Sequence record: MT446416.1
Source: Escherichia virus TH47
Strand: one strand, 5' to 3'
Length of the DNA stretch: 64,000 nucleotides
The notes under the pieces were generated by a model. That model was not told the origin of the DNA and ran no database searches. It saw only the letters and a list, made by a program, of their open reading frames with translations. Made by a program: the position numbers and the translations under genes. Below are positions 3,412-57,642 of the stretch, piece by piece (the first letter of the stretch is position 1; each line of letters starts with the position of its first letter).

Positions 3412-3439
3412 ATTATATCACATTCTTTGCGTTTGTCAA
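3412..3439 (-). promoter_or_regulatory. sigma70-type promoter TTGACA-N16-TGaTATAAT driving the ClpA-like gene
   Basis: Minus-strand reading TTGACAaacgcaaagaatgtgaTATAAT; consensus -35 and extended -10, about 32-nt leader to the ATG. Confidence 0.6.
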
Positions 3440-3444
3440 CAAGG

Positions 3445-3450
3445 TAAATA
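3445..3450 (+). promoter_or_regulatory. T4-late-like TAAATA motif 31 nt upstream of ATG 3482
   Basis: One of eight TAAATA sites found 31-36 nt upstream of gene starts in this window. Confidence 0.3.
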
Positions 3451-3481
3451 AAGATATACCCGATTTATTTTGGAGACAAAC

Positions 3482-4978
3482 ATGACATACAGAATGTGGA
3501 AAAAAGGTAGAACCAATGATTACAAGTTCATTGACTCTGCCATAGCAGAACAATACAACATCGGTGGTGTTGACATGTGGCTTTATGCCTATGTCGGACC
3601 AAAACAAGTCGCTGATAACACTGATTTATCATATGGCGGTGATTATTATGGTTCAGATAGTACCGTTGTGTCAAGCATTGGTGATTTAATTTTTGGTGAC
3701 ACTCCAAGTCGTAACTATAATCTCGAAGCTATCACCTTAAGTTGCGTCTACCAAGTCCAAGAAGCAACTCCTGACTTGAAAATCCCAGGATTGTTCTTCA
3801 ACTTTAACACTATGGACATCACAATTCATTATAACACAATGATTCAGCGTTTGGGAAGAAAAATTATGCCAGGTGACGTAATCGAACTCCCTAACTTACG
3901 TGATTTTGATGTACTTGGTAAAGATTCTGGTTTAAATCGCTTCTATGTAGTACAAGATGGGTTTAGAACATCAGAAGGTTACTCAGTTACATGGCAACAT
4001 CACATTTACAAACTCCGTGTTAAACCTCTTACTGATTCACCAGAGTATTCAGACCTTCTAGGTAACAATAACTACCCTGATGACCCAGATGAACCAAACA
4101 ACGGCAATGGTAATACTGATGATGGCTCTTCAGAGAACAGCAGCTATGGTAATGAAATGGACATTATGAACCGTATCATTATGCAAGCTGATGATGAAGT
4201 ACCATACATTCATTTTACTAACGAACACTTGTTCGATGACAGACCAGATACCGTTGATTTGTCTAAGTATATGCTAAATGGATACGAATTACCAGAGGAA
4301 CCAGCAAATAAAATGTATTTCCTCAAGAAAACTTACCCAGTACTGAAAGAACTATCTAATGATACATGGATTTCTGTAGAAGTCAAGCGTGGAACAATCT
4401 TTCCTCGCAAACCGATGGATGGTGACTTCTTCTTTAAAGAAAACGAGGCTGATGTCACTGGCTTCTCATTGTATCAATACGATAAATCTGCCAAAAAGTG
4501 GCTAAATTGTGATGTTGAGTATACTACAGAAAGCACACCACCACAAGGGGTTGATGATTTTTATATTGAATACAAAGAACCACACATTTATCAGTACTTA
4601 AATGGTAAATGGGGAGAACCAGAAGTAACTTACGTTAATGACCCATTCACTTCTAATAGTGTTTATGGAAATATCGATTCACAACAAGATTATCGTCCTA
4701 AGATTCCTCCAGCACGAGGTACAGTTCCTGAAGGTAATATGTTCCCAAGTGATGCAGTTGATGGTGATTACTACTATCGTACCGATTATACACCAGTAAC
4801 CCTATGGGAATACAGTGCATCCAAGAATTCTTGGGTGATTTTCGATTACGGTGGTAGAAAACCGTGGGAAGGTGCAGATCTTGCTCTAACAGAATTTGTT
4901 AATAGCCCGAACCGTGTACCATTACATGATGCAGTTAAACCTAATACAGCGTATCGTATACATAAGGATTCAGAATGA
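3482..4978 (+). CDS. hypothetical protein (possible virion structural)
   Basis: 498-aa ORF; ATG 3482 with GGAG SD; ORF-track start 3470 is TTG; stop overlaps next ATG (ATGA). Confidence 0.5.
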   Translation: MTYRMWKKGRTNDYKFIDSAIAEQYNIGGVDMWLYAYVGPKQVADNTDLSYGGDYYGSDSTVVSSIGDLIFGDTPSRNYNLEAITLSCVYQVQEATPDLKIPGLFFNFNTMDITIHYNTMIQRLGRKIMPGDVIELPNLRDFDVLGKDSGLNRFYVVQDGFRTSEGYSVTWQHHIYKLRVKPLTDSPEYSDLLGNNNYPDDPDEPNNGNGNTDDGSSENSSYGNEMDIMNRIIMQADDEVPYIHFTNEHLFDDRPDTVDLSKYMLNGYELPEEPANKMYFLKKTYPVLKELSNDTWISVEVKRGTIFPRKPMDGDFFFKENEADVTGFSLYQYDKSAKKWLNCDVEYTTESTPPQGVDDFYIEYKEPHIYQYLNGKWGEPEVTYVNDPFTSNSVYGNIDSQQDYRPKIPPARGTVPEGNMFPSDAVDGDYYYRTDYTPVTLWEYSASKNSWVIFDYGGRKPWEGADLALTEFVNSPNRVPLHDAVKPNTAYRIHKDSE

Positions 4979-6318
4979 AAATAGATTATTATTATGATGG
5001 TCAATTTCGTCGAGTACTGAAACATCTTATCAGAGTGTTTGGTGAATTTCAAGTACAAAATGGTGTTGATGCTGACGGAAAACCAAAATATAAGAAAGTT
5101 CCTTGCCGCTATGCAGATATTTCACGTATGGCAGCAGCAATTATTAATGGTAACAGTGAGAACGTGCTTCCAACAGCACCAATCATGACCATTAGTGTAA
5201 ACCAACTTAAACTAGATCGCAAGTCAGTTCGTTCAAACGCAAATGAAACATTAGTTATGGGGACTAACAAGTCCCCTGGAATTAACGAATATACTAAAGA
5301 CTTAGATAAACAGTATAAAGTAACTCGTCATAACCCAGTACCTTGGACATTTACGTTTGATGTTAATATTTGGGTTACACAAACACAAACTAAAATGGAA
5401 CTATTTGAGCAAATTTCAACATTGTTTGCTCCTAGTATTCAATTACAACTCTCCGAGAACCCACTGGATTGGACATCATTGAGTGATGTGGAGTTGATTG
5501 ACTGTCAATTTACTACTCGTGGTTTCCCACAAGGAACCGATAGTGATTTGGATATAATGGTATTGACATTTGAAACCACAATTTGGTTCTCTTTGCCAGC
5601 TATTGTTGAGAAACCAAAACTTATCCAACAAATCACCACCAATATTAAAGGTGCTCGTGATGAACTTGATTTTGAAATTGGTAATTACTCGGATATCATT
5701 ACTGATGTATTCACACCAAAGAACTTATGTATTAAAGTTGATGAAATAACAAACTCTGAACTTAATATCCCAGATACTTACCAACTCACTCTTGTTAGTC
5801 AATCACTATCAGAAACATCACCAAATGGTGGGATTTATTCATGGGAAAAATACCTTAAGTACTTGGACCCAGAATATGAAGACAAGACTGTAGGTATTAA
5901 ATTCCAACAAGCTATAGAAGAGGATAACCCACTAAAAGGACATATCTCTTCATTTGGGGAAGGGGCTGATTCTAACAAGATTGTAGTTCAGCTTGATAAT
6001 AGTAATTATACTGTTGATTATACAATACATGGATTCATTAGTAAAGACTCTTTGTTATATAACGCACTACCTGAACAATATTATGTAAATAATAGCATAC
6101 ATAACATCATTTACAAAGAGACTGAAATCCCAGCGAACTATTTGTTTAAAATTACCAATGATGGAGCAGAACTTATTGAGCCATCGCGAGTACACCACTA
6201 TGTTTATAATATGGAAGATAGTGGATATTATAGATATAATGACAAATTCAAATGGCATAAGAGTATTATGTCAGTATATCGTCAGGGATATTGGAAAATA
6301 ACTTTCACTGACAAATAA
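4975..6318 (+). CDS. hypothetical protein
   Basis: 447-aa ORF translationally coupled to upstream gene; no recognisable motif. Confidence 0.5.
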   Translation: MKIDYYYDGQFRRVLKHLIRVFGEFQVQNGVDADGKPKYKKVPCRYADISRMAAAIINGNSENVLPTAPIMTISVNQLKLDRKSVRSNANETLVMGTNKSPGINEYTKDLDKQYKVTRHNPVPWTFTFDVNIWVTQTQTKMELFEQISTLFAPSIQLQLSENPLDWTSLSDVELIDCQFTTRGFPQGTDSDLDIMVLTFETTIWFSLPAIVEKPKLIQQITTNIKGARDELDFEIGNYSDIITDVFTPKNLCIKVDEITNSELNIPDTYQLTLVSQSLSETSPNGGIYSWEKYLKYLDPEYEDKTVGIKFQQAIEEDNPLKGHISSFGEGADSNKIVVQLDNSNYTVDYTIHGFISKDSLLYNALPEQYYVNNSIHNIIYKETEIPANYLFKITNDGAELIEPSRVHHYVYNMEDSGYYRYNDKFKWHKSIMSVYRQGYWKITFTDK

Positions 6319-6330
6319 GGAGGTGTTGTT

Positions 6331-6795
6331 ATGAATGAAGCAGTAGGTGCTATATTTTTATCTAAAAGTACTGGACACATGATGTTAAACTTGAGATCAG
6401 AAAGAAGTACGTATTCTAACAACTGGGCATTTGTTGGTGGGAAGCTTGAGTATAATGAAACTCCGTTACAGGGTCTTATGCGTGAGATTAAAGAAGAGCT
6501 AGGTGATTCTATTCCAACGATAATAGATATTATACCATTTGATGTATTTTGTACGAAGAATGGTAAATTTAAATATTATTCATTTGTCATTGTAGTTGAA
6601 AATGAATTCGTACCTACTTTAAATCATGAGAGTTCTGGTTATGCATGGGTTAAGATTGGCTCATGGCCCAAACCATTACATCCTGGTGCAAAAAACACAT
6701 TACTTAACACAAATTTAATGAAGGATTTCTATTCATTGTGGGAAAGTATACGACAAGGTACACAGTTTGTCAACAGCTTACCATATCGATATTAA
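6331..6795 (+). CDS. Nudix hydrolase
   Basis: Nudix box GGKLEYNETPLQGLMREIKEELG (G-x5-E-x7-REUxEExGU); AGGAGG SD. Confidence 0.8.
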   Translation: MNEAVGAIFLSKSTGHMMLNLRSERSTYSNNWAFVGGKLEYNETPLQGLMREIKEELGDSIPTIIDIIPFDVFCTKNGKFKYYSFVIVVENEFVPTLNHESSGYAWVKIGSWPKPLHPGAKNTLLNTNLMKDFYSLWESIRQGTQFVNSLPYRY

Positions 6796-6800
6796 TAAAA

Positions 6801-6830
6801 AAAGGAGCCAATGGCTCCTTTTTTCTTTTT
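6801..6830. terminator. bidirectional rho-independent terminator
   Basis: aaaggagcc/ggctccttt stem flanked by A-run and T-run, between convergent genes. Confidence 0.7.
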
Positions 6831-7929
6831 ATACCCCAATTAGTGGGATACCTGTTATATTAAGTAGAACAGATACTTGAAGCTTAACTGACTCACCTGC
6901 CGAAAGGTTGTTTACTATACCATCTACGCGGAACCCTAAGTTTTTATTAGAGTTAAGAGAGTTAATCACCCAGTTTTCGTAATCCGCTTTTGTAATACCA
7001 TTCGGATTTGGGAGAGTTGGGTCAACACCATTAATTACCATAGATACATCCCAATTAGGGCGACTACTTGTAATTACATCCTTGATTGATTCTAGTTGTG
7101 TAATGCGACGTGGGTCTGGAATCTGACTTGCACCAATTGAACCAGGAACAAATTTACCTTGGTTATCAACATAGAACTGACCTTTAATGAAAAATGTTTT
7201 TGAATTATACGGAAGAGAAACAATTTCACCTGATGAATCACTAACTTCACGAATCATAATTTTCAATTCATAAAAATAGTTACTACCAAATTCAAACACA
7301 CCAGTACCATTTGTGAATGTTGTCCAGTTATTTGAATCAACCTGTGAAGTACCACCCATATTGAAGTAAGCTAATGGCTTAGTACTGTTACTTTGTGTAA
7401 ATTCAATATATTTCTTACCTGTATCATAGTTGATATCAAGTAGTGTGGAGTACTCTTTATTTTCTGGACGAGATGTTTGAATTTCACGCCATTCTTTATT
7501 TTTCATTAGGACACGAAGGGAATCACCATTACTGGTAAGAACCATACGACCCATAATACTATTTTCACCATCTGGTACGGTGTTGAAAATTGAAATCATT
7601 GGGATAGATGCCCAGTCAGCTTCAGATGCAGTATCTACTGGCTGACGAGCATTATCAACTAATGCAAGAAGTAGTTCGCCAGTGTTGCCAGTATTTCTGT
7701 ACCAAATCTGACCATTAACGTTACCACGAGGTGCAGTTGCTCCACTGAAGTTCTCAACCAAGTGGAGGAAGTTTTCGTTCCATGCTTGACCGTAACCAAC
7801 TTTATTTCGACCTGCAAAGTTTAACGGTACTGGGTTACTACCAGGTTGGTTTGGTCCTAATATTACGTTATTTGGAATGGTAGCATAAACGCTACCATTA
7901 CTTCTATAAATTGTATAACTTACACTCAT
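6829..7929 (-). CDS. hypothetical protein (possible tail/baseplate component)
   Basis: 366-aa ORF, ATG with AAGGTGA SD; first of three co-oriented genes. Confidence 0.5.
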   Translation of the reverse strand: MSVSYTIYRSNGSVYATIPNNVILGPNQPGSNPVPLNFAGRNKVGYGQAWNENFLHLVENFSGATAPRGNVNGQIWYRNTGNTGELLLALVDNARQPVDTASEADWASIPMISIFNTVPDGENSIMGRMVLTSNGDSLRVLMKNKEWREIQTSRPENKEYSTLLDINYDTGKKYIEFTQSNSTKPLAYFNMGGTSQVDSNNWTTFTNGTGVFEFGSNYFYELKIMIREVSDSSGEIVSLPYNSKTFFIKGQFYVDNQGKFVPGSIGASQIPDPRRITQLESIKDVITSSRPNWDVSMVINGVDPTLPNPNGITKADYENWVINSLNSNKNLGFRVDGIVNNLSAGESVKLQVSVLLNITGIPLIGV

Positions 7930-7941
7930 ATCATCACCTTA

Positions 7942-8550
7942 TTATTGTAGTTGGACACGAACTGTGTATTTGATTTGCAAAACACGGTTAGCACTTTTCT
8001 CAACTGGGTGAAAAATAATATGGGTAAGTGGAATACCGCTATCACCATTTGTATATAAACCCAATTCGTCAAATACATATGTCCCATCCATGCTAGTACC
8101 AGAGCTAACACCTTGGTCAGATGGCTCACCTAAACCTAATGTACAAATACAGACGATATCAGTGTAAGCTTGGCCTGGAATGTGAACAGTTGTAATGTTG
8201 TTATATTGTGAATCAATACCAGCAGAGATACGTGGGTTGATTTTTTTCAGATAAGTCTGAGAATATAGACCACCGAAAGAAGTAACGCGTGGTTTCTTGT
8301 ATGTGATACGACCAGTACTCAAAACTACTGTTCCACCATTACCAAAACGCATCTCACTAATAGATCCAATAGGAATACCAGTACTATCTTGATTATAAGC
8401 CAACGCATTAGCAATAGCAGTACTCATATTTTCAGGGTGAATTGCGTTTGATTTATCCAAAACGATTTTTTGGTTAGATGGATCAGTAACGTCAGTAATT
8501 AGTACATGACCCTTAACAAATAGTTTTGGTTGTTCTGTTTCTAATTTCAT
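7942..8550 (-). CDS. hypothetical protein
   Basis: 202-aa ORF, ATG with AAGGA SD. Confidence 0.5.
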   Translation of the reverse strand: MKLETEQPKLFVKGHVLITDVTDPSNQKIVLDKSNAIHPENMSTAIANALAYNQDSTGIPIGSISEMRFGNGGTVVLSTGRITYKKPRVTSFGGLYSQTYLKKINPRISAGIDSQYNNITTVHIPGQAYTDIVCICTLGLGEPSDQGVSSGTSMDGTYVFDELGLYTNGDSGIPLTHIIFHPVEKSANRVLQIKYTVRVQLQ

Positions 8551-16400: not shown

Positions 16401-18441
16401 AACAACTGCTGCTTCTCTTAATATTGCAAAAAATACTGCAATCAATGGTGATTTAGCTGTATCTGGTACACTAACTGCTGGTTCAATCGACCTAAGCAAT
16501 ACTGATGTAACCGTTAAATCTCTTGATTCACTAGGTAACGCACACATTGCTGGTAACCTAACTGTTGATGGTGCATTCGACTTAAGTGCAACTAACCTTG
16601 TAGCTGCAAGTCTAGCAAGTACTGGTTCTACTACTGTTGGAACTGATCTAGTACTAACAACTGGTGTTGTGACTGGTAGCCCAGCTATCTCTGGTAATAC
16701 AACAATCGGTGGAACTCTTGGTGTAACTGGTGCTGTTAACCTAACTGATATTGTTAATATCGGTAAGAAAGTAACAGTGAGTACTGGTGGTATTCAGGTA
16801 GTTGATGGTGGTATCAATACTAACACAATTAACGTTTCTGGTGCTACTACTCTAGCAGGAACTTCCATTACTGGAACTTTAGGTGTAACTGGTGCTTCTA
16901 CTCTAGCAGGTGTATCTGCAACATCACTAACAGTTTCTGGTGACAGTACTGTTCAGAAACTAACTGTCCAAGGTGAATTGATCCCACAAGGTGGTCTTGA
17001 CCTAAGCGGTGCAGACATTACTGCTAATAGTCTAACTACTGCAACAACTATCAATGCAACTGGCCTAAGTACTCTAAGTGGTGGTGTTAGTACTTCTACT
17101 GTGACTGCATCTGGTCTAGCAACTGTTGGAAGTTTAACTTCTACTGCAAACGCATCAGTTGGTGGTAATTTGGGTGTAACTGGAACTCTAGGTGTTACTG
17201 GTGCAACTACTGTATCTTCACTAACAGCTACTGGTGCAGTGAAAACTGGTACAACCCTAACTGTTGGTACTCCAGTTGGTGAACAACCTGAAACTGTACA
17301 GATCATTCCAGATACTTATATTGCTGGTAAATTGCGTGTAATCGGCGGTATTAACGCTGATATTGATGTTAGTGGTCAAACACTAGAACCATATGCAATT
17401 GAAGCTGCTGCAACACTATCTGCTGTTGGTAACATTACTTCTGGTGCAACCATCGTTTCTAAAGCTGCAACAATTGGTGATGTTGGTTCACAAAACAACA
17501 ACCTAACTGTTAATGGTAACGTAGTAACTAATGGTGACTTCACAGTTACTGGGGTACTAAATGCACAATTGAACCAAGCAGATTCCGATGTAGCTGTTAA
17601 ATCTTTAACTGCAACTAATAACGTTGCGGCTGGTACTTCAATCACTGCTGGTACTTCCATCACTGCAACTGGATTACTTAAAGGTAATACTTTAGAAGTT
17701 ACTACTACTGGTTCATTTGGTGGTGCAGTAACTATGTCAAGTGGTGCAAACATCACTGGTACAGTGGGTATTACTGCTGGTGACCTAACAGTAGGTGGTA
17801 ATATCTCTGCAACTGGCACTGCTGGATTCGGTGCAACAACCGTTTCTACAATTACAACATCAGGTTTGGCTACACTTGCAAGTACATCCGTTACTGGTAA
17901 CGCAACAGTAGGTGGAACACTAGCAGTAACAGGAGCACTAACTGCGAATGGTAACGTAACATTAGGTGACGCAGCGGCTGACGTTCTAACCGTTAATGCA
18001 ACTTCATCATTTAAAGAAAATGCTGTGTTTGATAAGGCAGTAACAGTAACTGGTGAACTAACCACTACTAATGCTAACTTAACTACTACAACAGTAACTA
18101 CCAAAAAGTATGATGTAATCCCAACTCAAGTTACATCATCAGTAATTGCTCCAACCGGAACATGGACTCCAGATGGTACAAGTAACGTGTACTTCATCAC
18201 TCTAGACCAAGATACCACGTTGGCTCCAATTACTGGCCTAATTGGTGGCGGTAAAGCTGCATCAGTATACATCTATGTTAAACAAGATACAACTGGTAAC
18301 AGAAACTTTACAACTGATGGTACTTATGCTGTTGTTGATGGTGAACTAAACAAAACTGCTGGTAGCGTGACCATTTACCAAGTAATTTATGATGGTGTAA
18401 GTCCAGTTACTGATTTGTTCATTGCACAACGTACTGCTTAA
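13483..18441 (+). CDS. giant repetitive fibrous protein (1652 aa)
   Basis: T/G/V/S/A-rich periodic sequence; GGAGGG SD; tandem 170-aa duplication near N-terminus. Confidence 0.6.
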   Translation: MYSIKTDLDITGGATVGKDLLVKGDAVFNKNLTVNGTVTFADAVFTAIEAGTVDISSTLDVAGKASLNGGIEVHGNSVIGNLPVGSDTATINSNAQFQSPVSMAGNLTQTAGTAVLKDTQVASMDVLGTSSFKGNITAETGTTAAFDKITATDATFTNTATTDITSTGTANFKDVNISGTLGGTFSLSDVNATTLTVSGLTSLQGGVTLGSNITGVNSSANFRDIKIGSNAANTNYRLSFNYSAPSLRPTVILQNEIQSELMSPATLSVLKTASFGDSSLSTFGITGNGLNKLDYLTVSGNSVQDPTTPLLQVTSGKTKVHDFEVTGTATIPNIESTGTANFNNINVSGTLGGTFSLDDIEANTLTVSGLTSLVGGVTLGADISGANSTANFKAVSLGQNAADANVKYGFAYSAPGARPTVILQNEIQSELVSPAVLNVQKTATFGDASLATYGITGNGLNKLDYLSITGNGTQSPATPQLQVAGKSVLNDVEFTGTVTGLTVDVSGQDLTPKSVVAAEAIKGQTLESVGQTTVGTNLQVGGTANVVGALTGTAATFTGDVSAAKGTFSGDVSVTGQTVTVRDLVVTGTTTGVTAQADVDGLDIAPNKVDVTTTLSVAGDTTLAGLTASSVTSTGDVTGASVSGNTVTAAGALSGGSLAVTGAGSMASLTVPSITGDTTFANNVTITGTLTPSSIDLSTTDVSAASLTTTGNVTVGGSLAVTGAIDLSAADVVTKSVSATNPSTFGVINASSVAATGDVSGGTLTTTGAAKVGTLTSTGVVSGSRLSSGTATISTSVTVPTLQAEAAGAGTLNLASNVVAAKDLTVTGVFKPEGGLDLTTVDITANSLTTTADVNVGGNLVVDGTFDLSAADVSVKSLVSAEAITSGGVITVTDSTNTSSFPKITSTDATLFTVNAGTINATGNSVLQSVSATQVTATSAEFSGSGLGLQVDNDANVGGALSVGGIATVGSLTTTAASLNIAKNTAINGDLAVSGTLTAGSIDLSNTDVTVKSLDSLGNAHIAGNLTVDGAFDLSATNLVAASLASTGSTTVGTDLVLTTGVVTGSPAISGNTTIGGTLGVTGAVNLTDIVNIGKKVTVSTGGIQVVDGGINTNTINVSGATTLAGTSITGTLGVTGASTLAGVSATSLTVSGDSTVQKLTVQGELIPQGGLDLSGADITANSLTTATTINATGLSTLSGGVSTSTVTASGLATVGSLTSTANASVGGNLGVTGTLGVTGATTVSSLTATGAVKTGTTLTVGTPVGEQPETVQIIPDTYIAGKLRVIGGINADIDVSGQTLEPYAIEAAATLSAVGNITSGATIVSKAATIGDVGSQNNNLTVNGNVVTNGDFTVTGVLNAQLNQADSDVAVKSLTATNNVAAGTSITAGTSITATGLLKGNTLEVTTTGSFGGAVTMSSGANITGTVGITAGDLTVGGNISATGTAGFGATTVSTITTSGLATLASTSVTGNATVGGTLAVTGALTANGNVTLGDAAADVLTVNATSSFKENAVFDKAVTVTGELTTTNANLTTTTVTTKKYDVIPTQVTSSVIAPTGTWTPDGTSNVYFITLDQDTTLAPITGLIGGGKAASVYIYVKQDTTGNRNFTTDGTYAVVDGELNKTAGSVTIYQVIYDGVSPVTDLFIAQRTA
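13978..14997 (+). repeat. tandem duplication (2 x about 510 bp) inside the giant fibre gene
   Basis: Protein segments 166-335 and 336-500 align over their full length (STGTANF...TVILQNEIQSEL...GITGNGLNKLDYL). Confidence 0.7.
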
Positions 18442-21350: not shown

Positions 21351-21380
21351 AGGGAGACATAAGTCTCCCTTTTCTTTTAT
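21351..21380. terminator. bidirectional rho-independent terminator
   Basis: agggagac/gtctccct stem, A-run upstream, T-run downstream; between convergent genes. Confidence 0.7.
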
Positions 21381-22306
21381 ACAGCCATTGGTGCTTTGAT
21401 TGTTGGCATTGGATCGTAATTAACTAATTTGAAAGAATCCATAGTGAAATCTTCAATATCAGTAATAGTAGGATCTAACCATAATTCTGGTAATGTACGT
21501 GGTTCACGTTGGAGTTGCTCTTTTACTTGTTCAATATGGTTTTGATAGATATGGCAGTCGCCACCATTCCAAATAAATTCACCAACATCTAACCCAGTAA
21601 TTTGTGCAATCATATGAGTTAGTAGTGAGTAACTACTAATGTTAAATGGTACACCAAGGAATAAATCAGCACTGCGTTGATGAAGAATACAACTTAGTTT
21701 ACCCTGTACAACACAAAACTGCACAAAGCTATGACAGGGTGGCAAAGTCATAGCATCAAGCTCACCAACGTTCCATGCACTTAGAATGTGACGACGACCG
21801 TATGGATCAGTATTGATACCTTCAATAACTTGTTTTAGCTGGTCAGTTACACGACGCATAATAACACCATGTGAACCAGTATAATCAATAACTTTATACC
21901 CTTTATCTTTTAGTTCTTGAATTTCTTCAGTACTGGAACTGAATTTATAATCTTCCCATTCACGCCATTGTTTACCATAAACTGGGCCAAGCTCACCATC
22001 AGAATACCCAAGGCTTACACCTTGATTAAGGTAGTTGTCTGTCCAAATTGTTTTCTTTTCTACATCACGTGTCCCGTGTAAAATTTCACACAGACGACGC
22101 TCATCGTGAGAACCTTCAATAAACCATAACAATTCTGAAGTCATTGCTTTCCAAGCCAAACGTTTAGTAGTTACTGCTGGGAAACCTTCTTTTAGGTCAA
22201 AACGCATTTGTTGTCCGATTAGCTTGATAGTGCCAACACCAGTACGATCAACGCTTTCGACACCTTGATCCAGAATTCTTTGATATAGTTCTTGTAGTTG
22301 TTTCAT
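21377..22306 (-). CDS. thyA: thymidylate synthase
   Basis: DRTGVGT, LPPCHSFVQF (catalytic Cys), GKLSCILHQRSADLFLGVPFNI, C-terminal IKAPMAV; about 33-aa in-frame insertion relative to E. coli ThyA. Confidence 0.92.
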   Translation of the reverse strand: MKQLQELYQRILDQGVESVDRTGVGTIKLIGQQMRFDLKEGFPAVTTKRLAWKAMTSELLWFIEGSHDERRLCEILHGTRDVEKKTIWTDNYLNQGVSLGYSDGELGPVYGKQWREWEDYKFSSSTEEIQELKDKGYKVIDYTGSHGVIMRRVTDQLKQVIEGINTDPYGRRHILSAWNVGELDAMTLPPCHSFVQFCVVQGKLSCILHQRSADLFLGVPFNISSYSLLTHMIAQITGLDVGEFIWNGGDCHIYQNHIEQVKEQLQREPRTLPELWLDPTITDIEDFTMDSFKLVNYDPMPTIKAPMAV

Positions 22307-23825: not shown

Positions 23826-23853
23826 ATTATATCACCTTTTTCCAAGCTGTCCC
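23826..23853 (-). promoter_or_regulatory. promoter GGGACA-N16-TGaTATAAT
   Basis: Minus-strand GGGACAgcttggaaaaaggtgaTATAAT; same architecture as sites at 44835 and 57615. Confidence 0.55.
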
Positions 23854-23856: not shown

Positions 23857-23888
23857 GAAAAAAGTAGAGAACGGAATTTTCCGTTCTC
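23857..23888 (-). terminator. rho-independent terminator after the VWA gene
   Basis: Perfect 8-bp stem gagaacgg/ccgttctc with T-run on minus strand; immediately upstream of the promoter. Confidence 0.65.
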
Positions 23889-26714: not shown

Positions 26715-26754
26715 GTATATTTTCCTTTTGTTGGATAAAATCGTTTAGGTTTCT

Positions 26755-26783
26755 ATTATAGCCAATCCGTGGGCAAAAGTAAA
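26755..26783 (-). promoter_or_regulatory. proximal promoter P3 (TTTACT-N17-TATAAT)
   Basis: Minus-strand TTTACTtttgcccacggattggcTATAAT about 40 nt upstream of the ATPase ATG. Confidence 0.4.
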
Positions 26784-26823
26784 GGAACTGTGTTAAAAGA
26801 ATTTTTAACTTATCAGTTCCTTT
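26781..26823 (-). promoter_or_regulatory. hairpin (possible attenuator/terminator) between P2 and P3
   Basis: Perfect 10-bp inverted repeat aaaggaactg/cagttccttt with 23-nt loop, followed on minus strand by acttttg. Confidence 0.4.
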
Positions 26824-26885
26824 GTTACTTCATGAATCATCCGTGTATTTAAAAAGGCATTTCTCTTTGCCGTCTTGATGTGGTC

Positions 26886-26913
26886 ATTATATCACATCGT
26901 TCAGGCTTGTCAA
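26886..26913 (-). promoter_or_regulatory. promoter P2 (TTGACA-N16-TGaTATAAT) with A-rich UP element
   Basis: Minus-strand aaaaaaaagttgTTGACAagcctgaacgatgtgaTATAAT; part of a ~70-bp direct repeat. Confidence 0.65.
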
Positions 26914-26979: not shown

Positions 26980-27007
26980 ATTATATCACATCATTCGGCG
27001 TTGTCAA
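26980..27007 (-). promoter_or_regulatory. promoter P1 (TTGACA-N16-TGaTATAAT) with A-rich UP element
   Basis: Minus-strand aaaaaaaaagatgTTGACAacgccgaatgatgtgaTATAAT; second copy of the repeat. Confidence 0.65.
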
Positions 27008-44358: not shown

Positions 44359-44758
44359 TTCTTTTCCCTTTATTTCGTTGAAACATCGTAACAGCCTTTA
44401 TTATACTGTTACACATTCGTTCAGTCAAATACTTTTGACAATCTAGTACATCAATGTACATGAACTTATCCAATTCTGGGTGACTTCTACCATATCGGTT
44501 TGTGTAAGTACTCTTACACTCTAACTCTTCTGGTATAGGCTTATCTTTGGCTGTATAGAAAAATAAAACTAAACGTTTCCCCTTTCTATACGATACATCA
44601 CCAAGAAACAGAAGATCATCTTCATCGATTTCATATCCTGTCTCTTCGTAGCATTCGCGAACAGCAGCCTCTTTAAATGTTTCTGTACCTTCAGTTTTAC
44701 CTTTAGGTAAGTCCCAGTGATTCTGTCCGTGTTGTATGCCCGATAAGTATCTGACCAT
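44348..44758 (-). CDS. Nudix hydrolase (second copy)
   Basis: Nudix box GKTEGTETFKEAAVRECYEETGY; start ATG 44758 very close to a -10 element (possible short leader). Confidence 0.65.
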   Translation of the reverse strand: MVRYLSGIQHGQNHWDLPKGKTEGTETFKEAAVRECYEETGYEIDEDDLLFLGDVSYRKGKRLVLFFYTAKDKPIPEELECKSTYTNRYGRSHPELDKFMYIDVLDCQKYLTERMCNSIIKAVTMFQRNKGKRNES

Positions 44759-44834
44759 CACGATAAAATATTATACCACAACTATAACGCATAATCTTAT
44801 CTCTTTATCATCAAGTGATGTTCAGATACTAGTA

Positions 44835-44862
44835 ATTATATCAGAAGATGTTAACTTGTCCC
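44835..44862 (-). promoter_or_regulatory. promoter GGGACA-N16-TGaTATAAT
   Basis: Minus-strand GGGACAagttaacatcttctgaTATAAT just after the CCA-enzyme stop; a second TGgTATAAT lies at 44770-44778. Confidence 0.55.
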
Positions 44863-48648: not shown

Positions 48649-48981
48649 TTACTCTTCGTCTTCAGTCAAGTCTTCTTGAACTGGATGTTCTGGGTGGTTA
48701 CGGCGATGCAATTTGATGCTTTTGTCTTTACCTAAGACAGTTTCCATTTTTTCAAATGAATCACCAATTGCTTTGTATAAATCTGCATCATCGGCTGTAA
48801 CACTCTTACCGCCTGATGTTAAAGTTACGGAATATTGGTTCTTATGCTCTTTCTTCACATGAACACCAATATGCAGTACTGAAGAATCACTAAACTTCGT
48901 TAGTGCATTTGCTTCAGCATGAATTGCGTCATTGATTGCTGGAGTAATATCAACATTACCTTGGATAACTAAATCTAGCAT
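48649..48981 (-). CDS. ribosome hibernation factor-like protein (HPF/RaiA family)
   Basis: Collinear with bacterial HPF as recalled: GNVDIT, VTLTSGGKSV, DLYKAIGDSFEKME, KDKSIK; acidic tail. Confidence 0.6.
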   Translation of the reverse strand: MLDLVIQGNVDITPAINDAIHAEANALTKFSDSSVLHIGVHVKKEHKNQYSVTLTSGGKSVTADDADLYKAIGDSFEKMETVLGKDKSIKLHRRNHPEHPVQEDLTEDEE

Positions 48982-50867: not shown

Positions 50868-51224
50868 TCATTTCTTGTGTAAAGGGTCGGCACTTTCATA
50901 ATAGATTGTATCATTGTTTCGCTCAATAGTAAAACTCTTTTGACACAACTCTTCAGCTAAACCCTTAGCATAGTTTAATACATCTCGGTTGAGATATACT
51001 TCTTCTTTTGGAAAGCGTGGGTACTGAATAATACGAGCACACATTCCACTTTCAAGACCACCCGTGTAGATGTATTCACACGGAATCAATTGTACACAAA
51101 AACCAAGATTGAATGTGAACTTTCTTGTGTACTCTCTTGCTGTTTGGATATCACCAGCAATATGAATATTCCAGTACTGCGTTTCAACTGTACCTTTGTC
51201 GATGTATTTCATACTCATCTCCAA
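50868..51224 (-). CDS. hypothetical protein
   Basis: 118-aa ORF. Confidence 0.4.
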   Translation of the reverse strand: MEMSMKYIDKGTVETQYWNIHIAGDIQTAREYTRKFTFNLGFCVQLIPCEYIYTGGLESGMCARIIQYPRFPKEEVYLNRDVLNYAKGLAEELCQKSFTIERNNDTIYYESADPLHKK

Positions 51225-51241
51225 TTATAGCATAAAAAATC

Positions 51242-51637
51242 CTACTTGCCCAAATCTTCTATAATTCTTTTTATGGTATCATTGTTTTCCAGACATAAAG
51301 TACTGAAATTTCTACCTGTTTTTTCATTTAGTTCGCTGATTTCAAGCATAAGATAACCATACGTGATATCTTGAATCCTACTTCGTTTTACCCTTGAGTA
51401 CAGTTTTATGGGTACAGATACACGAGTATTCAAAAAGAATTCTGGTAAATCATAACGATATACCAGGTATTCATTCTTGGAACGTCTACGACTGTACGAT
51501 TCTAAACACTGTGGGAAACGTCTGTCAAAAATACTACTCCTTAACTTAAGGAACATTGGATCTATCTTATGTGAGTAATATGATTTGATTATTTCATCAA
51601 ATCTTTTTGTATGTCGTTTACGCCATCTCATAATCAA
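51242..51637 (-). CDS. hypothetical protein
   Basis: 131-aa ORF. Confidence 0.4.
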   Translation of the reverse strand: MIMRWRKRHTKRFDEIIKSYYSHKIDPMFLKLRSSIFDRRFPQCLESYSRRRSKNEYLVYRYDLPEFFLNTRVSVPIKLYSRVKRSRIQDITYGYLMLEISELNEKTGRNFSTLCLENNDTIKRIIEDLGK

Positions 51638-52922: not shown

Positions 52923-53253
52923 TTTTAATCCTTAAGTACGTGTGCTTGCATTTTAATCTATTACCATAGGATGAAATTGGGATATTGAACATTTCTATTT
53001 TACCCTCTTTTAAAAGACGTAAAATATCTGGATCGTTTTTGGTTTGTACACAATGAAGACCATTGACTTGAATTTCTACACCATTATTCAGAAATTCATA
53101 AATCTTCTGTCTACGCTTCCCACCGAAACTTTCATTTCGGATAACATCTCTTAGGTCTTTATATTCTTGTTTTAATTTCCTGTCAAAAAGTGTTCCATCT
53201 TTCTTTCTGATTTCTTCAATACACTTATATTGAGTTTGTCCTCTAAGAGCCAT
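52915..53253 (-). CDS. hypothetical protein
   Basis: 112-aa ORF. Confidence 0.4.
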   Translation of the reverse strand: MALRGQTQYKCIEEIRKKDGTLFDRKLKQEYKDLRDVIRNESFGGKRRQKIYEFLNNGVEIQVNGLHCVQTKNDPDILRLLKEGKIEMFNIPISSYGNRLKCKHTYLRIKNE

Positions 53254-53722
53254 ATTTGACCTCGTTGGGATATTTCTTCATTAACTCATGTAAACGTTGA
53301 ATTTCCTGATTTTTCTTATGTTCTTCATCATACTTCTTAGAAAGATTCTTTCTTGTATTTGATTCTAATAATCTAAAATTAGTACAGAATCTATCATTTT
53401 TAGCAACGTTCTTACGTAACGCATCAAAAACAGTACTGAAATAGTTATCCAATGGAAAAGAAGTGTCAGTGTAATTATAAAAATCCATTACATTTGTCAG
53501 GTTCACATGTTCAATTACCGCACCATTGTGCGTTACAATAAACATTATATCACCATAATTACAATTTGCATCAGTACGGTGCAGATATAAATGATCACGT
53601 AAATAATCTTTTAATTTATGTTCAATACCACTTTGTTCAGTACTTTGAAATACCAAAACTTCACCATAGGTTGTATTACCGTCATATTCATTTGGTTCGC
53701 GGATAATTGTAAGGTTATACAT
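53243..53722 (-). CDS. hypothetical protein
   Basis: 159-aa ORF. Confidence 0.4.
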   Translation of the reverse strand: MYNLTIIREPNEYDGNTTYGEVLVFQSTEQSGIEHKLKDYLRDHLYLHRTDANCNYGDIMFIVTHNGAVIEHVNLTNVMDFYNYTDTSFPLDNYFSTVFDALRKNVAKNDRFCTNFRLLESNTRKNLSKKYDEEHKKNQEIQRLHELMKKYPNEVKYGS

Positions 53723-53730
53723 ATAACTCC

Positions 53731-54021
53731 TTATACCGGAGATACGGTACTCAGCATTAGTAGAGCAGTGTTTTCATCAATTTCATGTTGATTGTCGCAA
53801 ACTAGAGTTTCCAGCAGATCTGGATTGTAATAATAATGTTCATAATCTGTATCATTTGGAATATGGTGATAGGTGAATACAATGTCAAATACATCATCAT
53901 CATTTTCACTTTTGAAACGCTTTAATTCTTCTACACTTTCAACAAAGCCATACTCTTCAAAAGCAGTAGTACCATCTTGTAGTTTCATCCATGCACTTGC
54001 GACAATTTTCATAAATTTCAA
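53731..54021 (-). CDS. hypothetical protein
   Basis: 96-aa ORF. Confidence 0.4.
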   Translation of the reverse strand: MKFMKIVASAWMKLQDGTTAFEEYGFVESVEELKRFKSENDDDVFDIVFTYHHIPNDTDYEHYYYNPDLLETLVCDNQHEIDENTALLMLSTVSPV

Positions 54022-54025
54022 ATCC

Positions 54026-54613
54026 TTATTCTTTTGTAATGTTTAGTTTAGAAACGAAATGGTTTTTTGCTTCTTCAAATGTCATTGAAGTATATACTGG
54101 GTTCCAATTATCGTCAAGATCTGTAAGTACTTTAACTTCCATTACATCTTCAGGTGTGTAGAATTGCCATGTATTATGGTCTGGCTCATAATTAGGATCT
54201 AGTACAAAAACTGTTCCATTCTGACCATAAACTTCCCCATCATTTAATAGTTCACTGAAGAAATCTTCACCTGTTGTTGGGTCTTCGTATGCATTATAAA
54301 AACGAAAAACAACATTCTCAACATCAGTTCGGGTAGTACCATCGTCTTCATCATATTCCACCAAACGGTCCTGATGAAATACTAGGTCAATAGCACCAAT
54401 GCGAGGTTTATTATGTGGAGTTTTGATTTCTTGCTGGGAATTGTAATCCATACGTTCAGTACTGATGAATACACCACTTGGTGTGATTTCAATACCAGAC
54501 ACATTTTCTGGTGAATAGTACGCTTCACACATATCATCAATATACATGTGCTCATGATACACTTCCATTTCAGGGTTCTGCATCAACAGTGCTGCTAGGT
54601 CTTTTGCTTTCAA
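54026..54613 (-). CDS. hypothetical protein
   Basis: 195-aa ORF. Confidence 0.4.
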   Translation of the reverse strand: MKAKDLAALLMQNPEMEVYHEHMYIDDMCEAYYSPENVSGIEITPSGVFISTERMDYNSQQEIKTPHNKPRIGAIDLVFHQDRLVEYDEDDGTTRTDVENVVFRFYNAYEDPTTGEDFFSELLNDGEVYGQNGTVFVLDPNYEPDHNTWQFYTPEDVMEVKVLTDLDDNWNPVYTSMTFEEAKNHFVSKLNITKE

Positions 54614-55002
54614 TCTTCAATCTCCATAGAGTCATCACTTTCGTAATCATCACTAGTGTACTTAGTTTTTACCTCAATACCATTCTCATGTAGGTATGTG
54701 ATAAAACCATTACCATGAACGAATTGATTATAATATGTATTTTCTTCTACATGTGAGTCATAATCATCTTCGTAATATGTGGGCATTGTAACATCATGAC
54801 CAGCACTTTGCAAGTACTGGAACAATTCTTTCAGTACTACTTCGATATCACCTTCTTCTGTACCATAACAATATGCAGGTTCACCGTGAGTGAATTTGAA
54901 TCCTTTACAGGAAACTGTATAAATGTCACTCATGTTCATACCACAATCATCACATTCATGTATAGAACAATGCTGGTGGAATTTAATCTTTTTGATTTGC
55001 AT
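54610..55002 (-). CDS. hypothetical protein
   Basis: 130-aa ORF, Cys/His-rich N-terminus, acidic C-terminus. Confidence 0.4.
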   Translation of the reverse strand: MQIKKIKFHQHCSIHECDDCGMNMSDIYTVSCKGFKFTHGEPAYCYGTEEGDIEVVLKELFQYLQSAGHDVTMPTYYEDDYDSHVEENTYYNQFVHGNGFITYLHENGIEVKTKYTSDDYESDDSMEIED

Positions 55003-55351
55003 TTAGAAAATCCTGTAAAGATGTAGTAGACATTGGACTATCAGCACCATCATACCACAGTGATGTATATGGCTGAACTGAACTAATATCAATACACAAC
55101 CCTTCACGCTCACATTTTTGAGCGAATTCTTCAGTAGTTTGTTTGTTACCAAAAGAAATCTCAAATTCATAACTCTCAAATTCATAACTAGACATATCAA
55201 TATCAGTACTGTAAATTAATGCACCATCATATGTAATATGGAGTTTAGAATCTGCGTCAAAAAGACGATCTGAAATAGCTTCATAATCATCTTCAGGAAC
55301 TGCTTCAATAAGACGGGCCATTAGTCCAGATGTTACGCGGTAATCACTCAT
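54983..55351 (-). CDS. hypothetical protein
   Basis: Start at ATG 55351 (GGAGAA SD) rather than GTG 55381. Confidence 0.4.
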   Translation of the reverse strand: MSDYRVTSGLMARLIEAVPEDDYEAISDRLFDADSKLHITYDGALIYSTDIDMSSYEFESYEFEISFGNKQTTEEFAQKCEREGLCIDISSVQPYTSLWYDGADSPMSTTSLQDFLNANQKD

Positions 55352-55362
55352 ATATATTCTCC

Positions 55363-55392
55363 AAAAGAAAAGGAGAGTCACAATGACTCTCC
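55363..55392 (-). terminator. rho-independent terminator
   Basis: Perfect 9-bp stem ggagagtca/tgactctcc with T-run on minus strand. Confidence 0.6.
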
Positions 55393-55399
55393 ATATATT

Positions 55400-55843
55400 T
55401 TATTGTAAAACTTTAAGTTTGTAAAGCATTCCTTCACAAAAACTCATAATGTCTTCTAGTGTGTTAGTACTGCCATAGTCTTCAGCCTCTTCAAGCATAG
55501 CATGAATGGCTTTACATTGACTAACATATTCTTCAAGAATTGGTACACAATCCTCGATAGGGGTAAAACGATAACTGTTACCAGTACCTACCTGTAATGC
55601 CCCGCGAGTGTTCATAATACCCTCTACAAATGCATCAACGTACTCAGGTAACTCTTTGTATAGTTCATCCAATTGTAGATGCTTAGTGTAGAAATGGCTC
55701 TGTAAATGCCAGTTGTGAGCAGCAGCACTTAAAAATAAACTATTCTCAATAAATGTAAGTAGTACTTCATCATAAGAACTATCTTCTTCAGTATCTCCAA
55801 TAAAGTCCATAACGTGGCGAAGTGTTGATATATCTTCATTCAT
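55400..55843 (-). CDS. hypothetical protein
   Basis: Start at ATG 55843 (GAGGATG SD) rather than 55876. Confidence 0.4.
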   Translation of the reverse strand: MNEDISTLRHVMDFIGDTEEDSSYDEVLLTFIENSLFLSAAAHNWHLQSHFYTKHLQLDELYKELPEYVDAFVEGIMNTRGALQVGTGNSYRFTPIEDCVPILEEYVSQCKAIHAMLEEAEDYGSTNTLEDIMSFCEGMLYKLKVLQ

Positions 55844-55872
55844 ATAATTACATCCTCTATGTGTATTCATAT

Positions 55873-56514
55873 TCATATTTTATTTATAGTAATGGTGATA
55901 TTAAAACTTTCTATATCATTCTTTAATATATCAACTCGTTTTCGTAAACCATCTATAACTTCTGGTATTACATCATTTTTATACATCTCTATTAACTCTT
56001 CTATATATTTTTTCTTTTCTATCTGCCACGCACGATGTGCATCTTCTGGAGTTTCATAAACACCAATGTATGTTGTTTTATTATATATTGTTATTTTAGC
56101 ACAATAAGGTTTGGTATATTCACTCACCATGTCTTTTGGACGTTTTCTGTATATCACTCCCATTCCATATGGTGATGCATTTGCAGCACTGTCTAGTATA
56201 CAGTAATTCAATTCTTTGGGAACAAATGCACATGTTTCAGGAGAATAGATTTTCTTACTCCCACCAATAATATCTTTATCTAATTGATATCCTTCTTTAT
56301 AATGTGATTTGTACCAAATTTTAAATTTTGAATAATACTTCCACTCATCACATACAACAGTTCCAATATAAGAACCCTTAGCCTTATCGGAATAGCATCG
56401 GTCTAACATACGTTGCCATGCACAATATATTGCTCGATCTGGATTTGTTATACTAGCATCACCTTTTATATCACAGATGCCATGACCATAAAACTTCTTC
56501 ATTAATTTATCCAT
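55873..56514 (-). CDS. putative DNA-binding protein with AP2-like domain
   Basis: W..M..RCY...Y.G..VC.EW module and C-terminal YIGVYETPEDAHRAWQ AP2-like motif; no nuclease motif seen. Confidence 0.45.
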   Translation of the reverse strand: MDKLMKKFYGHGICDIKGDASITNPDRAIYCAWQRMLDRCYSDKAKGSYIGTVVCDEWKYYSKFKIWYKSHYKEGYQLDKDIIGGSKKIYSPETCAFVPKELNYCILDSAANASPYGMGVIYRKRPKDMVSEYTKPYCAKITIYNKTTYIGVYETPEDAHRAWQIEKKKYIEELIEMYKNDVIPEVIDGLRKRVDILKNDIESFNITITINKI

Positions 56515-56524
56515 ATTTTTGTAA

Positions 56525-56953
56525 TTAGTTAATAATAAAGGTAACTTCAGGATTCATTTCTGAAACTGCATTTCTTTTACTTCTATTCCATAGTACTCTA
56601 TTGTTATATAATGAAGAATCACAAATTATAAGTAAGCAATTCCTTAATCTACTTACAGTACTTTGATTACTTAAATCAGTTTCTGTAACAAAAAATACAT
56701 TATCAGGAACTTCTACAGGAATTGATTTATCAAAGAAGAAAACTACAATAGGTCTGTTTGTATGAACTAAATTAATAAAGTCTAAAATACTGTTATAAAA
56801 TTCAGTTCCTTTGTTTAAACTTAATGGATCTTTGATCCTCTTCAAATATGTCTGAACCAATTTATGATCGTTTTTGATTTGATACTCAAAATATTCTTTG
56901 AATAACATTTGTGTTAATTCAGATGTATTGGATATTTTCGTTGTGTTACTCAT
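56525..56953 (-). CDS. hypothetical protein
   Basis: 142-aa ORF directly downstream of the non-coding unit. Confidence 0.45.
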   Translation of the reverse strand: MSNTTKISNTSELTQMLFKEYFEYQIKNDHKLVQTYLKRIKDPLSLNKGTEFYNSILDFINLVHTNRPIVVFFFDKSIPVEVPDNVFFVTETDLSNQSTVSRLRNCLLIICDSSLYNNRVLWNRSKRNAVSEMNPEVTFIIN

Positions 56954-57091
56954 TCACTTCGTTCTCTCGTAACTCAAGAAGTCACTACGTTTACTTCGTA
57001 AACTAGTTCCTTCTGAAAATGATAATGTACTTTAAAAGCTTGACGGGATTTGTTGAGGACTATTTCATCCCCCCGCAGGGGAATGAAGGTA

Positions 57092-57116
57092 ATAAAAAAG
57101 AGACAATTAAGTCTCT
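57092..57116 (-). terminator. rho-independent terminator ending the candidate ncRNA
   Basis: Perfect 6-bp stem agagac/gtctct, 6-nt loop, T6-7 on the minus strand only. Confidence 0.55.
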
Positions 57117-57608
57117 CTTGACGATGATGGCATCGGATATTATCGAATTGCGAATTTCTCAAATTTTGGACGGATCTTTCTTGTACCAAAATTTAGAGAG
57201 CGAAAGCGGGTTGCTCGGTTTCTCTCTATCGCAGTCATATGCAACGGTCGCTGGTCTTTTCATCAACAGCACTCAGTACTAAACTCTATTCGATCAAAGT
57301 AGTACCTGTTCTCAAATTTTGGACGCAACTTTCTTGTAAAATCGCGTCCACAATCCTTGAACTCCCTTAGCAAATTCGTAAGGTGCGAACCTTATACATC
57401 TATCTAGGAACTCTCTGTGTGCTTATTGGAGTTCTTTATACAGCCGTGTCGCCGTGATTCGTGGTCTTATCTCGTGTTTGTTTGATTGCCAGTACTCTAA
57501 CAGGTTTCTTTTGCTGTTCGCTACAACGGTAAAGCTCATCTATCCTTTACATTTTCAAGAGAAGTAGGTTCTCATTATCCATTTTTCAATGTCCGTTGTC
57601 ATTTTACA
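57092..57608 (-). ncRNA. candidate structured non-coding RNA (~515 nt), promoter-to-terminator unit without ORF
   Basis: Own promoter at 57615-57642 and own terminator at 57092-57116; all frames interrupted by stops; 17-nt direct repeat at 57156-57172 and 57309-57325; several GC-rich hairpins. Confidence 0.4.
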
Positions 57609-57614
57609 ATATAC

Positions 57615-57642
57615 ATTATATCACTAGGATGTATTATGTCCC
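57615..57642 (-). promoter_or_regulatory. promoter GGGACA-N16-TGaTATAAT driving the non-coding unit
   Basis: Minus-strand GGGACAtaatacatcctagtgaTATAAT just after the stop of the 57644-58057 gene. Confidence 0.55.

Follow-up and report, generated by a model that had tools for sequence, protein, structure and literature searches.

A candidate middle-type promoter class with a genus-specific -35 box in Rak2-like jumbo coliphages, and the structured RNA family that it precedes

For Pectobacterium phage CBB, three promoter classes have been predicted with MEME: one is RpoD-like, has UP elements and occupies the presumed early region, one is called 'divergent', and one is late and has the element ATAAATA (PMC5259590). 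In the divergent class, TGAAACG replaces TTGACA; its members lie before DNA-synthesis genes and a gp55-like gene, and the class is also reported for Cronobacter phage GAP32 (PMC5259590). The sites listed for CBB as 'Promoter 1' consist of TGAAACG, TGGAACG or TGGAATG, a gap of 13 nucleotides (nt) and TGnTATAAT (PMC5259590, Supplementary Table S6). Here, a set of promoter-like sites of this build is described in a 64,000-nt stretch of Escherichia virus TH47 (sequence record MT446416.1), which as a whole is called the window, together with a structured RNA that follows one of them. In a literature search, no promoter description was found for Asteriusvirus. The RaK2 genome paper and the papers characterizing Asteriusvirus members (ph0011, Sharanji) describe no promoters, and promoter classes are given only in the CBB paper.

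The architecture of the window sites, a 7-mer box followed by 13 nt and TGnTATAAT, is identical to that of Promoter 1 in CBB and GAP32, and in both cases DNA-synthesis genes and a gp55-like sigma gene are found downstream. The likeness extends to individual sites: the CBB promoter Porf_235 is the orthologue of the promoter in front of the ClpA-like gene of the window, and the promoters of the non-coding RNA copies discussed below are orthologous too. What differs is the box, which is TGAAACG or TGGAACG there and YGRGACA here (2-3 of 7 positions), the Asteriusvirus form being nearer to the TTGACA of the host and grading into it. The GGGACA sites can thus be regarded as the Asteriusvirus version of a class that has been predicted in the sister genera, and in both groups it is a predicted class.

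Two better-known types of promoter provide a wider frame. Middle promoters of phage T4 have a good sigma70 -10 element, often with TGn, and a phage element at -35, the MotA box (a/t)(a/t)(a/t)TGCTTtA, centred at about -30 and some 12 bp from the -10; they precede replication genes, nucleotide-metabolism genes and tRNAs. The window sites resemble them in combining a sigma70 -10 with a phage-specific element that replaces the -35 hexamer, in front of genes for replication and nucleotide metabolism. However, their element, YGRGACA, stops 16 nt short of the -10 hexamer and is not a MotA box. With the extended -10 promoters of E. coli, the sites share the exact TGnTATAAT, and independence of the -35 would be expected; in contrast, those promoters have no conserved alternative -35 box, while here a lineage-specific box is found at a fixed distance.

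The window can be assigned to the DNA of a Rak2-like jumbo coliphage (Asteriusvirus). In megablast comparisons, the Escherichia phages WPEC5 and Ecwhy_1, both filed under Asteriusvirus, are 98.9% identical to it, and G17, 121Q, PBECO4 and phAPEC6 about 84-88%. The complete Ecwhy_1 genome (354,537 bp; 91% coding and about 9% non-coding according to the GenBank annotation) was used for the genome-wide census and for the annotation of downstream genes.

The original prediction named six sites with a common 9-mer and a common spacer length on the minus strand, and all of them are present where it placed them (Table 1). Three have the form TTGACA-N13-TGATATAAT (3412, 26886 and 26980) and three the form GGGACA-N13-TGATATAAT (23826, 44835 and 57615), the 16 nt between the hexamers being composed of 13 nt and TGn. 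Their common orientation follows from that of the genes, since beyond about 21.4 kb nearly every gene of the window is encoded on the minus strand. Neither 28-nt pattern occurs in any of 100 dinucleotide-preserving shuffles of the window. TGNTATAAT occurs 17 times, compared to 6.6 expected, a count that no shuffle reached, and TGATATAAT occurs 11 times, with ten copies on the minus strand and seven in intergenic DNA, as against the non-coding share of about 9% in the relative. The six sites, as well as an isolated -10 copy at 39210, which is found as predicted and directly follows a terminator hairpin, carry the exact TGATATAAT and thereby the TG at -15/-14 of a sigma70 extended -10. Each TTGACA site matches the canonical sigma70 hexamers at 12 of 12 positions; the GGGACA sites match the -35 consensus at only 4 of 6 and do not qualify as canonical -35 elements. 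Further TGATATAAT copies, not listed in the original prediction, lie inside structural genes (29294 and 32625), inside an open reading frame (ORF; 53544) and on the plus strand (63860). The copy at 53544 was considered as a class member and rejected: besides lying in an ORF, it lacks a box and has no counterpart in PBECO4. A downstream box, TGATATAAT-N5-(A/T)TTGTAA, seen at 57615, 53544 and 23826, was also dropped, as the PBECO4 orthologue of 57615 has no such box and the 53544 site is missing there. A scan of 21-40 kb with a generic sigma70 consensus did not discriminate (61 sites for 64.8 expected), and only the two 12/12 sites stood out.

Comparison with relatives supports a use of these sequences as promoters. 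Each site was compared with its orthologue in a relative of about 85% identity. At the three GGGACA sites, none of the 45 positions of box and extended -10 has changed, as opposed to 19 of the 39 spacer positions (Fisher p = 2e-8); when the six sites are taken together, the numbers are 2 of 90 and 30 of 78 (p = 6e-10). As examples, the 26886 site has an identical box and -10 in G17 with 4 of 13 spacer positions changed, and the PBECO4 orthologue of 44835 reads TGGGACA-N13-TGATATAAT with 8 of 13 spacer bases replaced. Position is retained as well. The sites have kept their orthologous positions in four other genera, and the promoter of the operon with the thymidylate synthase gene td (23826) stands in the same place in five genomes, after the terminator of the HNH gene and with a box 13 nt before TGnTATAAT, all else having diverged; the box is GGGACA in G17, TGAACA in RaK2, GAGATA in EJP2 and GGAACA in fHe-Yen9-04. 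With box and extended -10 preserved while spacers diverge, with positions held across genera, and with a location in intergenic DNA, on the coding strand and often behind terminators, the six sites are very probably functional promoters, as originally proposed. One could argue that the shared 28-mers match by accident or are left over from a duplication of DNA, without a regulatory role, considering that the 26886 and 26980 sites are a local tandem duplication and that three TGATATAAT copies lie inside coding sequence. This explanation is extremely improbable in view of the shuffles, of the selective conservation of box and -10, and of the strong intergenic enrichment in the whole genome; moreover, the flanks and spacers of the sites other than the tandem pair are mutually unrelated.

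The genome of Ecwhy_1 contains 93 TGNTATAAT sites, and the hexamer 13 nt upstream of them is most often GGGACA (7), GAGACA (6), TTGACA (5), GGAACA (3), TAGACA (2) or AGGACA (2). When at most one mismatch to G[GA]GACA is allowed at this distance, 24 sites are obtained, all on the minus strand and on the coding strand. Twenty of these are intergenic in the GenBank annotation, two are in doubtful 5' extensions of genes and two are inside genes; in a genome that is 91% coding, this is a strong enrichment in intergenic DNA. The first position of the hexamer is G in 22 of the 24 and the second is R, and the preceding base is T or C in 19 of 23 sites tallied, for which reason the box is written as YGRGACA. 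There is, then, a class of about 25 promoters per genome with the form YGRGACA-N13-TG(A/C)TATAAT and GGGACA at its core, referred to here as class 2. The suggestion that GGGACA marks a class of its own therefore stands, except that GGGACA is merely the commonest form of a degenerate box. The exact GGGACA-N13-TGATATAAT gave 81 matches among the 2.9 million contigs of IMG/VR; the 121Q contig has seven, four other large contigs have 2, 2, 1 and 1, and every other contig has one.

The genes behind these promoters have a distinct functional profile. They include genes for an exonuclease, DNA primase, a recombination protein and an RNase H-like exonuclease, as well as the td operon, an operon with a nucleotide pyrophosphohydrolase gene and a Nudix/glutaredoxin cluster. 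Four non-coding RNAs, paralogues of one another, and a tRNA-like sequence are also preceded by such promoters, and so is the gene of a gp55-like late sigma factor (phrog_12791), whose likely true start, MTNRPKRK, directly follows the promoter. The tRNA-like sequence follows a promoter GGAACA-N13-TGATATAAT at 17344 of Ecwhy_1 and resembles the 5' end of a tRNA (GGTGAAGTGGCAGAGTGGTTTAATGC), which suggests that the tRNA cluster may belong to the class-2 regulon.

Class 2 is set apart from other promoter-like sequences of the phage. The intergenic DNA of Ecwhy_1 contains 61 promoters of the host type, defined as TTGACA and TATAAT 16-18 nt apart with no more than one mismatch, and 20 of them cluster at 289-310 kb among tiny genes, mostly as agtaTTGACA-N14-CT-TATAAT without TGn. 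In the same region, a second stereotyped form, aaaaagTACTTGCA-N16-GTATAATGTTTTACATC (also given as TACTTGCA-N16-GTATAATG), is present about 20 times, suggesting two distinct early promoter types. Each of these units (288-308 kb) has a G-rich hairpin after the motif and a tiny gene behind it, and the units alternate with those of the agtaTTGACA form. The late-type motif nTAAATA precedes the capsid, scaffold, portal, sheath, baseplate and fibre genes of Ecwhy_1, at a distance of 35-50 nt from the start codon. It resembles the T4 late element, but the exact T4-type TATAAATA occurs just once in the whole window, and no T4-type late element (TATAAATA-like, without a -35) is present at the six sites. 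Since the early and the nTAAATA classes have other forms and other places, the GGGACA class seems to be neither early nor late. It is best described as a delayed-early or 'middle'-type regulon, separate from the early and the late promoters; both promoter activity and 'middle' timing are inferred from sequence patterns, as would be the modified polymerase specificity that the original prediction considered.

In the original prediction, the six sites formed two families. For the GGGACA sites, the census, the functions of the downstream genes and the correspondence to Promoter 1 of CBB agree with this, but the TTGACA trio is no family of its own, being rather a small subset of the approximately 61 host-type promoters. 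Most of these lack TGn, whereas the trio shares the 13-nt gap and TGATATAAT with class 2. At the orthologous sites in sister genera the box is that of class 2, and intermediate forms such as TAGACA exist. At the 3412 site, phAPEC6 has TAGACA-N13-TGATATAAT, K64-1 has TTGACA-N15-TGATATAAT and CBB has TGGAACG-N13-TGCTATAAT; the orthologues of the promoter in front of the MoxR-like ATPase gene have GTGACA in EJP2 and GAAACA in fHe-Yen9-04. Trio and class 2 are therefore best seen as one architectural family, with a box that is convertible to the host consensus and a soft boundary within the genus.

The promoter at 57615 has no gene downstream, there being no ORF of more than 71 amino acids in the next 660 nt or so. 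Instead, it precedes a stretch that ends in an intrinsic terminator and is 95.8% identical to its counterparts in G17 and PBECO4, compared with about 84-88% for the flanking genes. More distant counterparts, with about 70% identity, can be recognized in GAP32, CBB, fHe-Yen9-04 and Erwinia phages. In Ecwhy_1 there are four paralogous copies, about 73% identical, each in an unannotated gap of 650-850 bp. A class-2 box with TGnTAtAAT lies upstream of all eight copies compared (the four paralogues and four orthologues from other genera), and a terminator follows 450-515 nt downstream in seven of the eight. A conserved 28-nt motif of the RNA was found at only 19 places in IMG/VR, almost all in contigs of 350-370 kb. 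It also gave 19 matches in metagenome contigs and none in 185,579 bacterial and archaeal species genomes. All 19 places in IMG/VR hold a full-length copy, as determined with nhmmer, and 18 of these have a class-2 promoter, which brings the total to 26 of 27 copies from several genera.

That the product is a folded RNA is indicated by covariation. For a non-redundant alignment of 19 sequences, RNAalifold predicts 94 pairs that form 19 helices, some of them long-range. Of all cells in the alignment at these pairs, 94.0% are paired, in contrast to 34-47% in controls with slid partners, and compensatory changes are seen at 43 pairs, in contrast to 8-19; the observed covariation score was reached in none of 500 shuffles, and an alignment of eight sequences gives the same picture. 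Rfam yielded no match in the window at the gathering score or at E <= 1, and when four orthologues were searched at E <= 10, none fell within the RNA. The ncRNA001 and ncRNA002 of phage PA5oct, defined by RNA sequencing, were considered as homologues and rejected, as nhmmer gave no match and the conserved motifs are absent. These observations point to a previously undescribed family of structured RNAs of about 450-515 nt, found only in Rak2-like jumbo phages and present as four paralogues per genome.

How could such a promoter class be read? In the mechanism that we propose, a phage without an RNA polymerase of its own would use six promoters with a common design, that is, a box of 6-7 nt, 13 nt and a perfect sigma70 extended -10, TGnTATAAT. 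As TTGACA is the host consensus box, the unmodified sigma70 holoenzyme of E. coli should be able to use the three TTGACA sites from the start of infection. The three YGRGACA sites would carry the Asteriusvirus form of a TGRRACR box that is common to Rak2-like phages. There, regions 2.4 and 3.0 of the host sigma70 would read the invariant -10 half, and a reader specified by the phage would read the box in place of sigma region 4, functionally analogous to sigma appropriation in T4. The resemblance would be one of working principle and not of membership in the T4 family, from which the system differs in box and spacing and in that no AsiA was detected. The two halves of the promoter behave differently in evolution: TGnTATAAT is invariant in all genera compared and is the exact sigma70 optimum, and the box varies between genera (GRGACA, GAAACG and GGAACR). 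The enterobacterial hosts of these phages have a near-identical sigma70 region 4.2. A box that is specific to the genus of the phage despite the same host region 4.2 thus points to a box reader that is specified by the phage. To the complete reading, in which all six sites are working promoters, class 2 is the middle regulon, and the -10 is read by sigma70 but the box by a reader that the phage specifies, we assign a probability of about 0.5. More tentative is the specific proposal that some phage factor replaces region 4 of sigma70 at the YGRGACA/TGRRACR box, with sigma70 at the -10, over a regulon that includes the new RNA family.

Several points weigh against this reading, and the first concerns the identity of the reader. 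An obvious alternative is an RpoD-like sigma factor of the phage itself, encoded outside the window at 1662-2630 of Ecwhy_1; it is a homologue of 121Q gp167, and Pfam recognizes regions 2 and 3. It might replace sigma70 altogether and read both YGRGACA, through region 4.2, and the -10, in which case class 2 would be the regulon of the phage sigma. Its gene is a core gene of the whole clade and lies in the early part of the genome, and region 4 is detectable in 121Q. The helix of region 4.2 varies in step with the box, the presumed recognition helix being RSS[LI]HRKY in phages with GRGACA and KATLSRRY in those with GRAACR. Three sigma factors for early, middle and late classes would also be an economical arrangement, but at least four promoter-like motif classes exist, which weakens this argument. 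The -10 speaks against the phage sigma. Class 2 has the exact sigma70 optimum including TGn without variation, whereas the phage sigma departs from group-1 sigma factors, with TT for W433/W434, M for Q437 (in Asteriusvirus), Y for T440 and H455, and V for E458, and its regions 2.4 and 3.0 differ between genera. Furthermore, Ecwhy_1 and 121Q have the same box, yet their sigma proteins are only 59% identical in amino acids. For these reasons, host sigma70 is favoured as the probable -10 reader, and a phage sigma that reads both elements seems rather unlikely.

Phage factors of the sigma70 family with their own promoter class have been described, for example, gp36 of phiEco32 (PMC8948821). The likeness consists of an RpoD-like sigma among the early phage genes and a distinct promoter class that is not early, and the difference is that the -10-like element is unlike TATAAT, while here it is the host optimum, which argues against a phage sigma as the -10 reader. 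As for the protein itself, it evolves unusually fast, its amino-acid identity of 59% contrasting with about 85% DNA identity of the phage genomes, and it has an insertion of 8-10 residues inside the helix-turn-helix of region 4. A likeness of its region 4.2 helix and of the TGAAAC/GGAAC box to extracytoplasmic function (ECF)-type region 4.2 and -35 elements was considered, but it was supported neither by Pfam, which gave only Sigma70_r4 and only in 121Q, nor by a profile search of the PDB. Another gene product that is annotated as "putative sigma 54" in relatives (48649-48981, minus strand) is a homologue of the ribosome hibernation factor (Pfam Ribosomal_S30AE, E = 5e-11) and no sigma factor.

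The second point is that no special factor may be needed. Extended -10 promoters work without -35 contacts, TGnTATAAT promoters being established to function with poor -35 elements, and the sigma70 holoenzyme alone may be sufficient at these sites. The class-2 promoters would then be ordinary sigma70 promoters, with GRGACA as a weaker -35 that tunes strength and affects neither timing nor specificity. In favour of this, the classes are not sharply separated within the genus: GRGACA keeps the GACA of the consensus and with it 4 of 6 positions, TAGACA and TGGACA occur as intermediates, and orthologous promoters, such as the 3412 and the ATPase sites, switch among TTGACA, TAGACA, GTGACA and the class-2 box. 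Nevertheless, drift from TTGACA is not expected to produce G at position 1 and R at position 2 again and again as in the census. The boxes of the sister genera, GAAACG and GGAACR, match TTGACA at just 2-3 of 6 positions, yet their conservation is strong and their distance fixed; no box position has changed where half of the spacer has been replaced; and class 2 is tied to particular gene functions. This makes an explanation by strength alone improbable.

Thirdly, the components known from T4 are not evident. A tblastn search of Ecwhy_1 with T4 AsiA as the query did not detect a homologue (best E 2.2), a search that can miss remote homologues and did not extend to MotA, and we know of no MotA-type activator in the Rak2-like clade. 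Finally, a literature search found no data on transcript starts or timing for enterobacterial Rak2-like phages.

Table 1. Promoters, terminator and RNA considered here (window coordinates unless a segment of Ecwhy_1 is given)
Feature	Position	Strand	Context
Promoter, TTGACA + 16-nt spacer + TGATATAAT	3412..3439	minus	Upstream of ClpA-like ATPase gene (ATG 3373, gene end 1085)
Class-2 promoter, GGGACA-13 nt-TGATATAAT	23826..23853	minus	Heads operon from small gene (ATG 23791) to thymidylate synthase (21377-22306)
Intrinsic terminator hairpin of upstream HNH/Zn-hydrolase gene	23867..23888	minus	Directly before the 23826 class-2 promoter
Tandem promoter P2 (proximal), TTGACA-N13-TGATATAAT	26886..26913	minus	Upstream of conserved 170-nt leader and MoxR/N4-gp24-like ATPase gene (ATG 26714)
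Tandem promoter P1 (distal), TTGACA-N13-TGATATAAT	26980..27007	minus	Preceded by A-rich UP-like tract
Extended -10 TGATATAAT without recognizable box	39210..39218	minus	Upstream of small gene and deoxynucleoside monophosphate (dNMP) kinase gene
Class-2 promoter, tGGGACA-N13-TGATATAAT	44835..44862	minus	Upstream of Nudix, glutaredoxin, macro-domain gene cluster
Candidate weak class-2 member, GGGCAA-N13-TGCTATAAT	51224..51251	minus	Overlaps 3' end of upstream gene; ATG 12 nt after -10
Class-2 promoter, cGGGACA-N13-TGATATAAT	57615..57642	minus	Predicted to drive the non-coding RNA; no gene downstream
Structured non-coding RNA, about 515 nt (predicted)	57093..57608	minus	Inferred start 7 nt after -10, to terminator AGAGAGAC-ttaatt-GTCTCTTTTTT
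RNA paralogues in Ecwhy_1 segments	L008:13742-14196; L004:9582-10066; L006:~1130-1592

Some of the individual sites merit further comment. The intergenic region of the 3412 promoter is a divergent one and also holds, on the plus strand, a TAAATA motif of the late type (about 3445-3453). In the operon behind 23826, the small gene is followed by three more genes and then by that of thymidylate synthase. The tandem pair is followed by the leader, the ATPase gene and then the HNH/Zn-hydrolase gene. Its distal member has a -10 that is drifting among relatives, being TGTTATAAT in Ecwhy_1 and TGATACAAT in G17. The leader (26715-26885, minus strand) is nearly identical in G17, above the regional identity of about 84%, and has two terminator-like hairpins, GGCAaagagaaaTGCC-TTTTT and AAAGGAACTG...CAGTTCCTTT-ACTTTT; the pairing of the second is kept in RaK2, though its stem is shortened. 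The product of these promoters may be a short RNA or an attenuated leader, and the ATPase gene may instead be served by an CTATAATAG element at about 26755.

At 39210, the -35 position is taken by the 3' arm and the T-tract of a terminator (39229-39255); the -10 is kept in Ecwhy_1, where the flanks differ. Ecwhy_1 contains terminator-promoter cassettes at 333479, 335117, 336924, 341398 and 348035, in which a -35 TTGACT is located within the terminator stem (GGGTTGACTTCGGTCAGCCCTTTTTGCTATAAT, with tATTTCATCA after it), and the 39210 site resembles a looser version of these. The 51224 site, absent from the original prediction, is uncertain as a member of class 2, and its identity in PBECO4 is little informative because the spacer is identical too. 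Behind the 44835 promoter, the Nudix hydrolase gene (44700-44792, minus strand) is apparently split by a +1 frameshift, with MRYSCGIIFYRDGQILIGHTTRTE in one frame and HWDLPKGK..., including the Nudix box, in the next. PBECO4 (87% identity) has the same split, so that an error in a single sequence record is not the cause; it may reflect either a programmed frameshift or a truncated start that is conserved.

Rak2-like jumbo phages such as 121Q, PBECO4, phAPEC6, RaK2, GAP32 and CBB continue to be isolated and are under consideration for use in therapy, and to our knowledge their transcription programme has never been mapped. The outcome of the present analysis is a testable map for Asteriusvirus, comprising consensus sequences for early, class-2 and late promoters and the genes behind each. 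A box that changes between genera next to a constant, host-type -10 narrows the question of the box reader to a few in vitro experiments. Should the proposed mechanism prove true, it would represent a second form of sigma appropriation, independent of MotA and AsiA. The apparent role of class-2 promoters in driving a conserved family of large structured RNAs raises the interest of what would otherwise be a moderate promoter finding. Large structured RNAs of such size are uncommon, and this makes the family attractive for functional and structural work.

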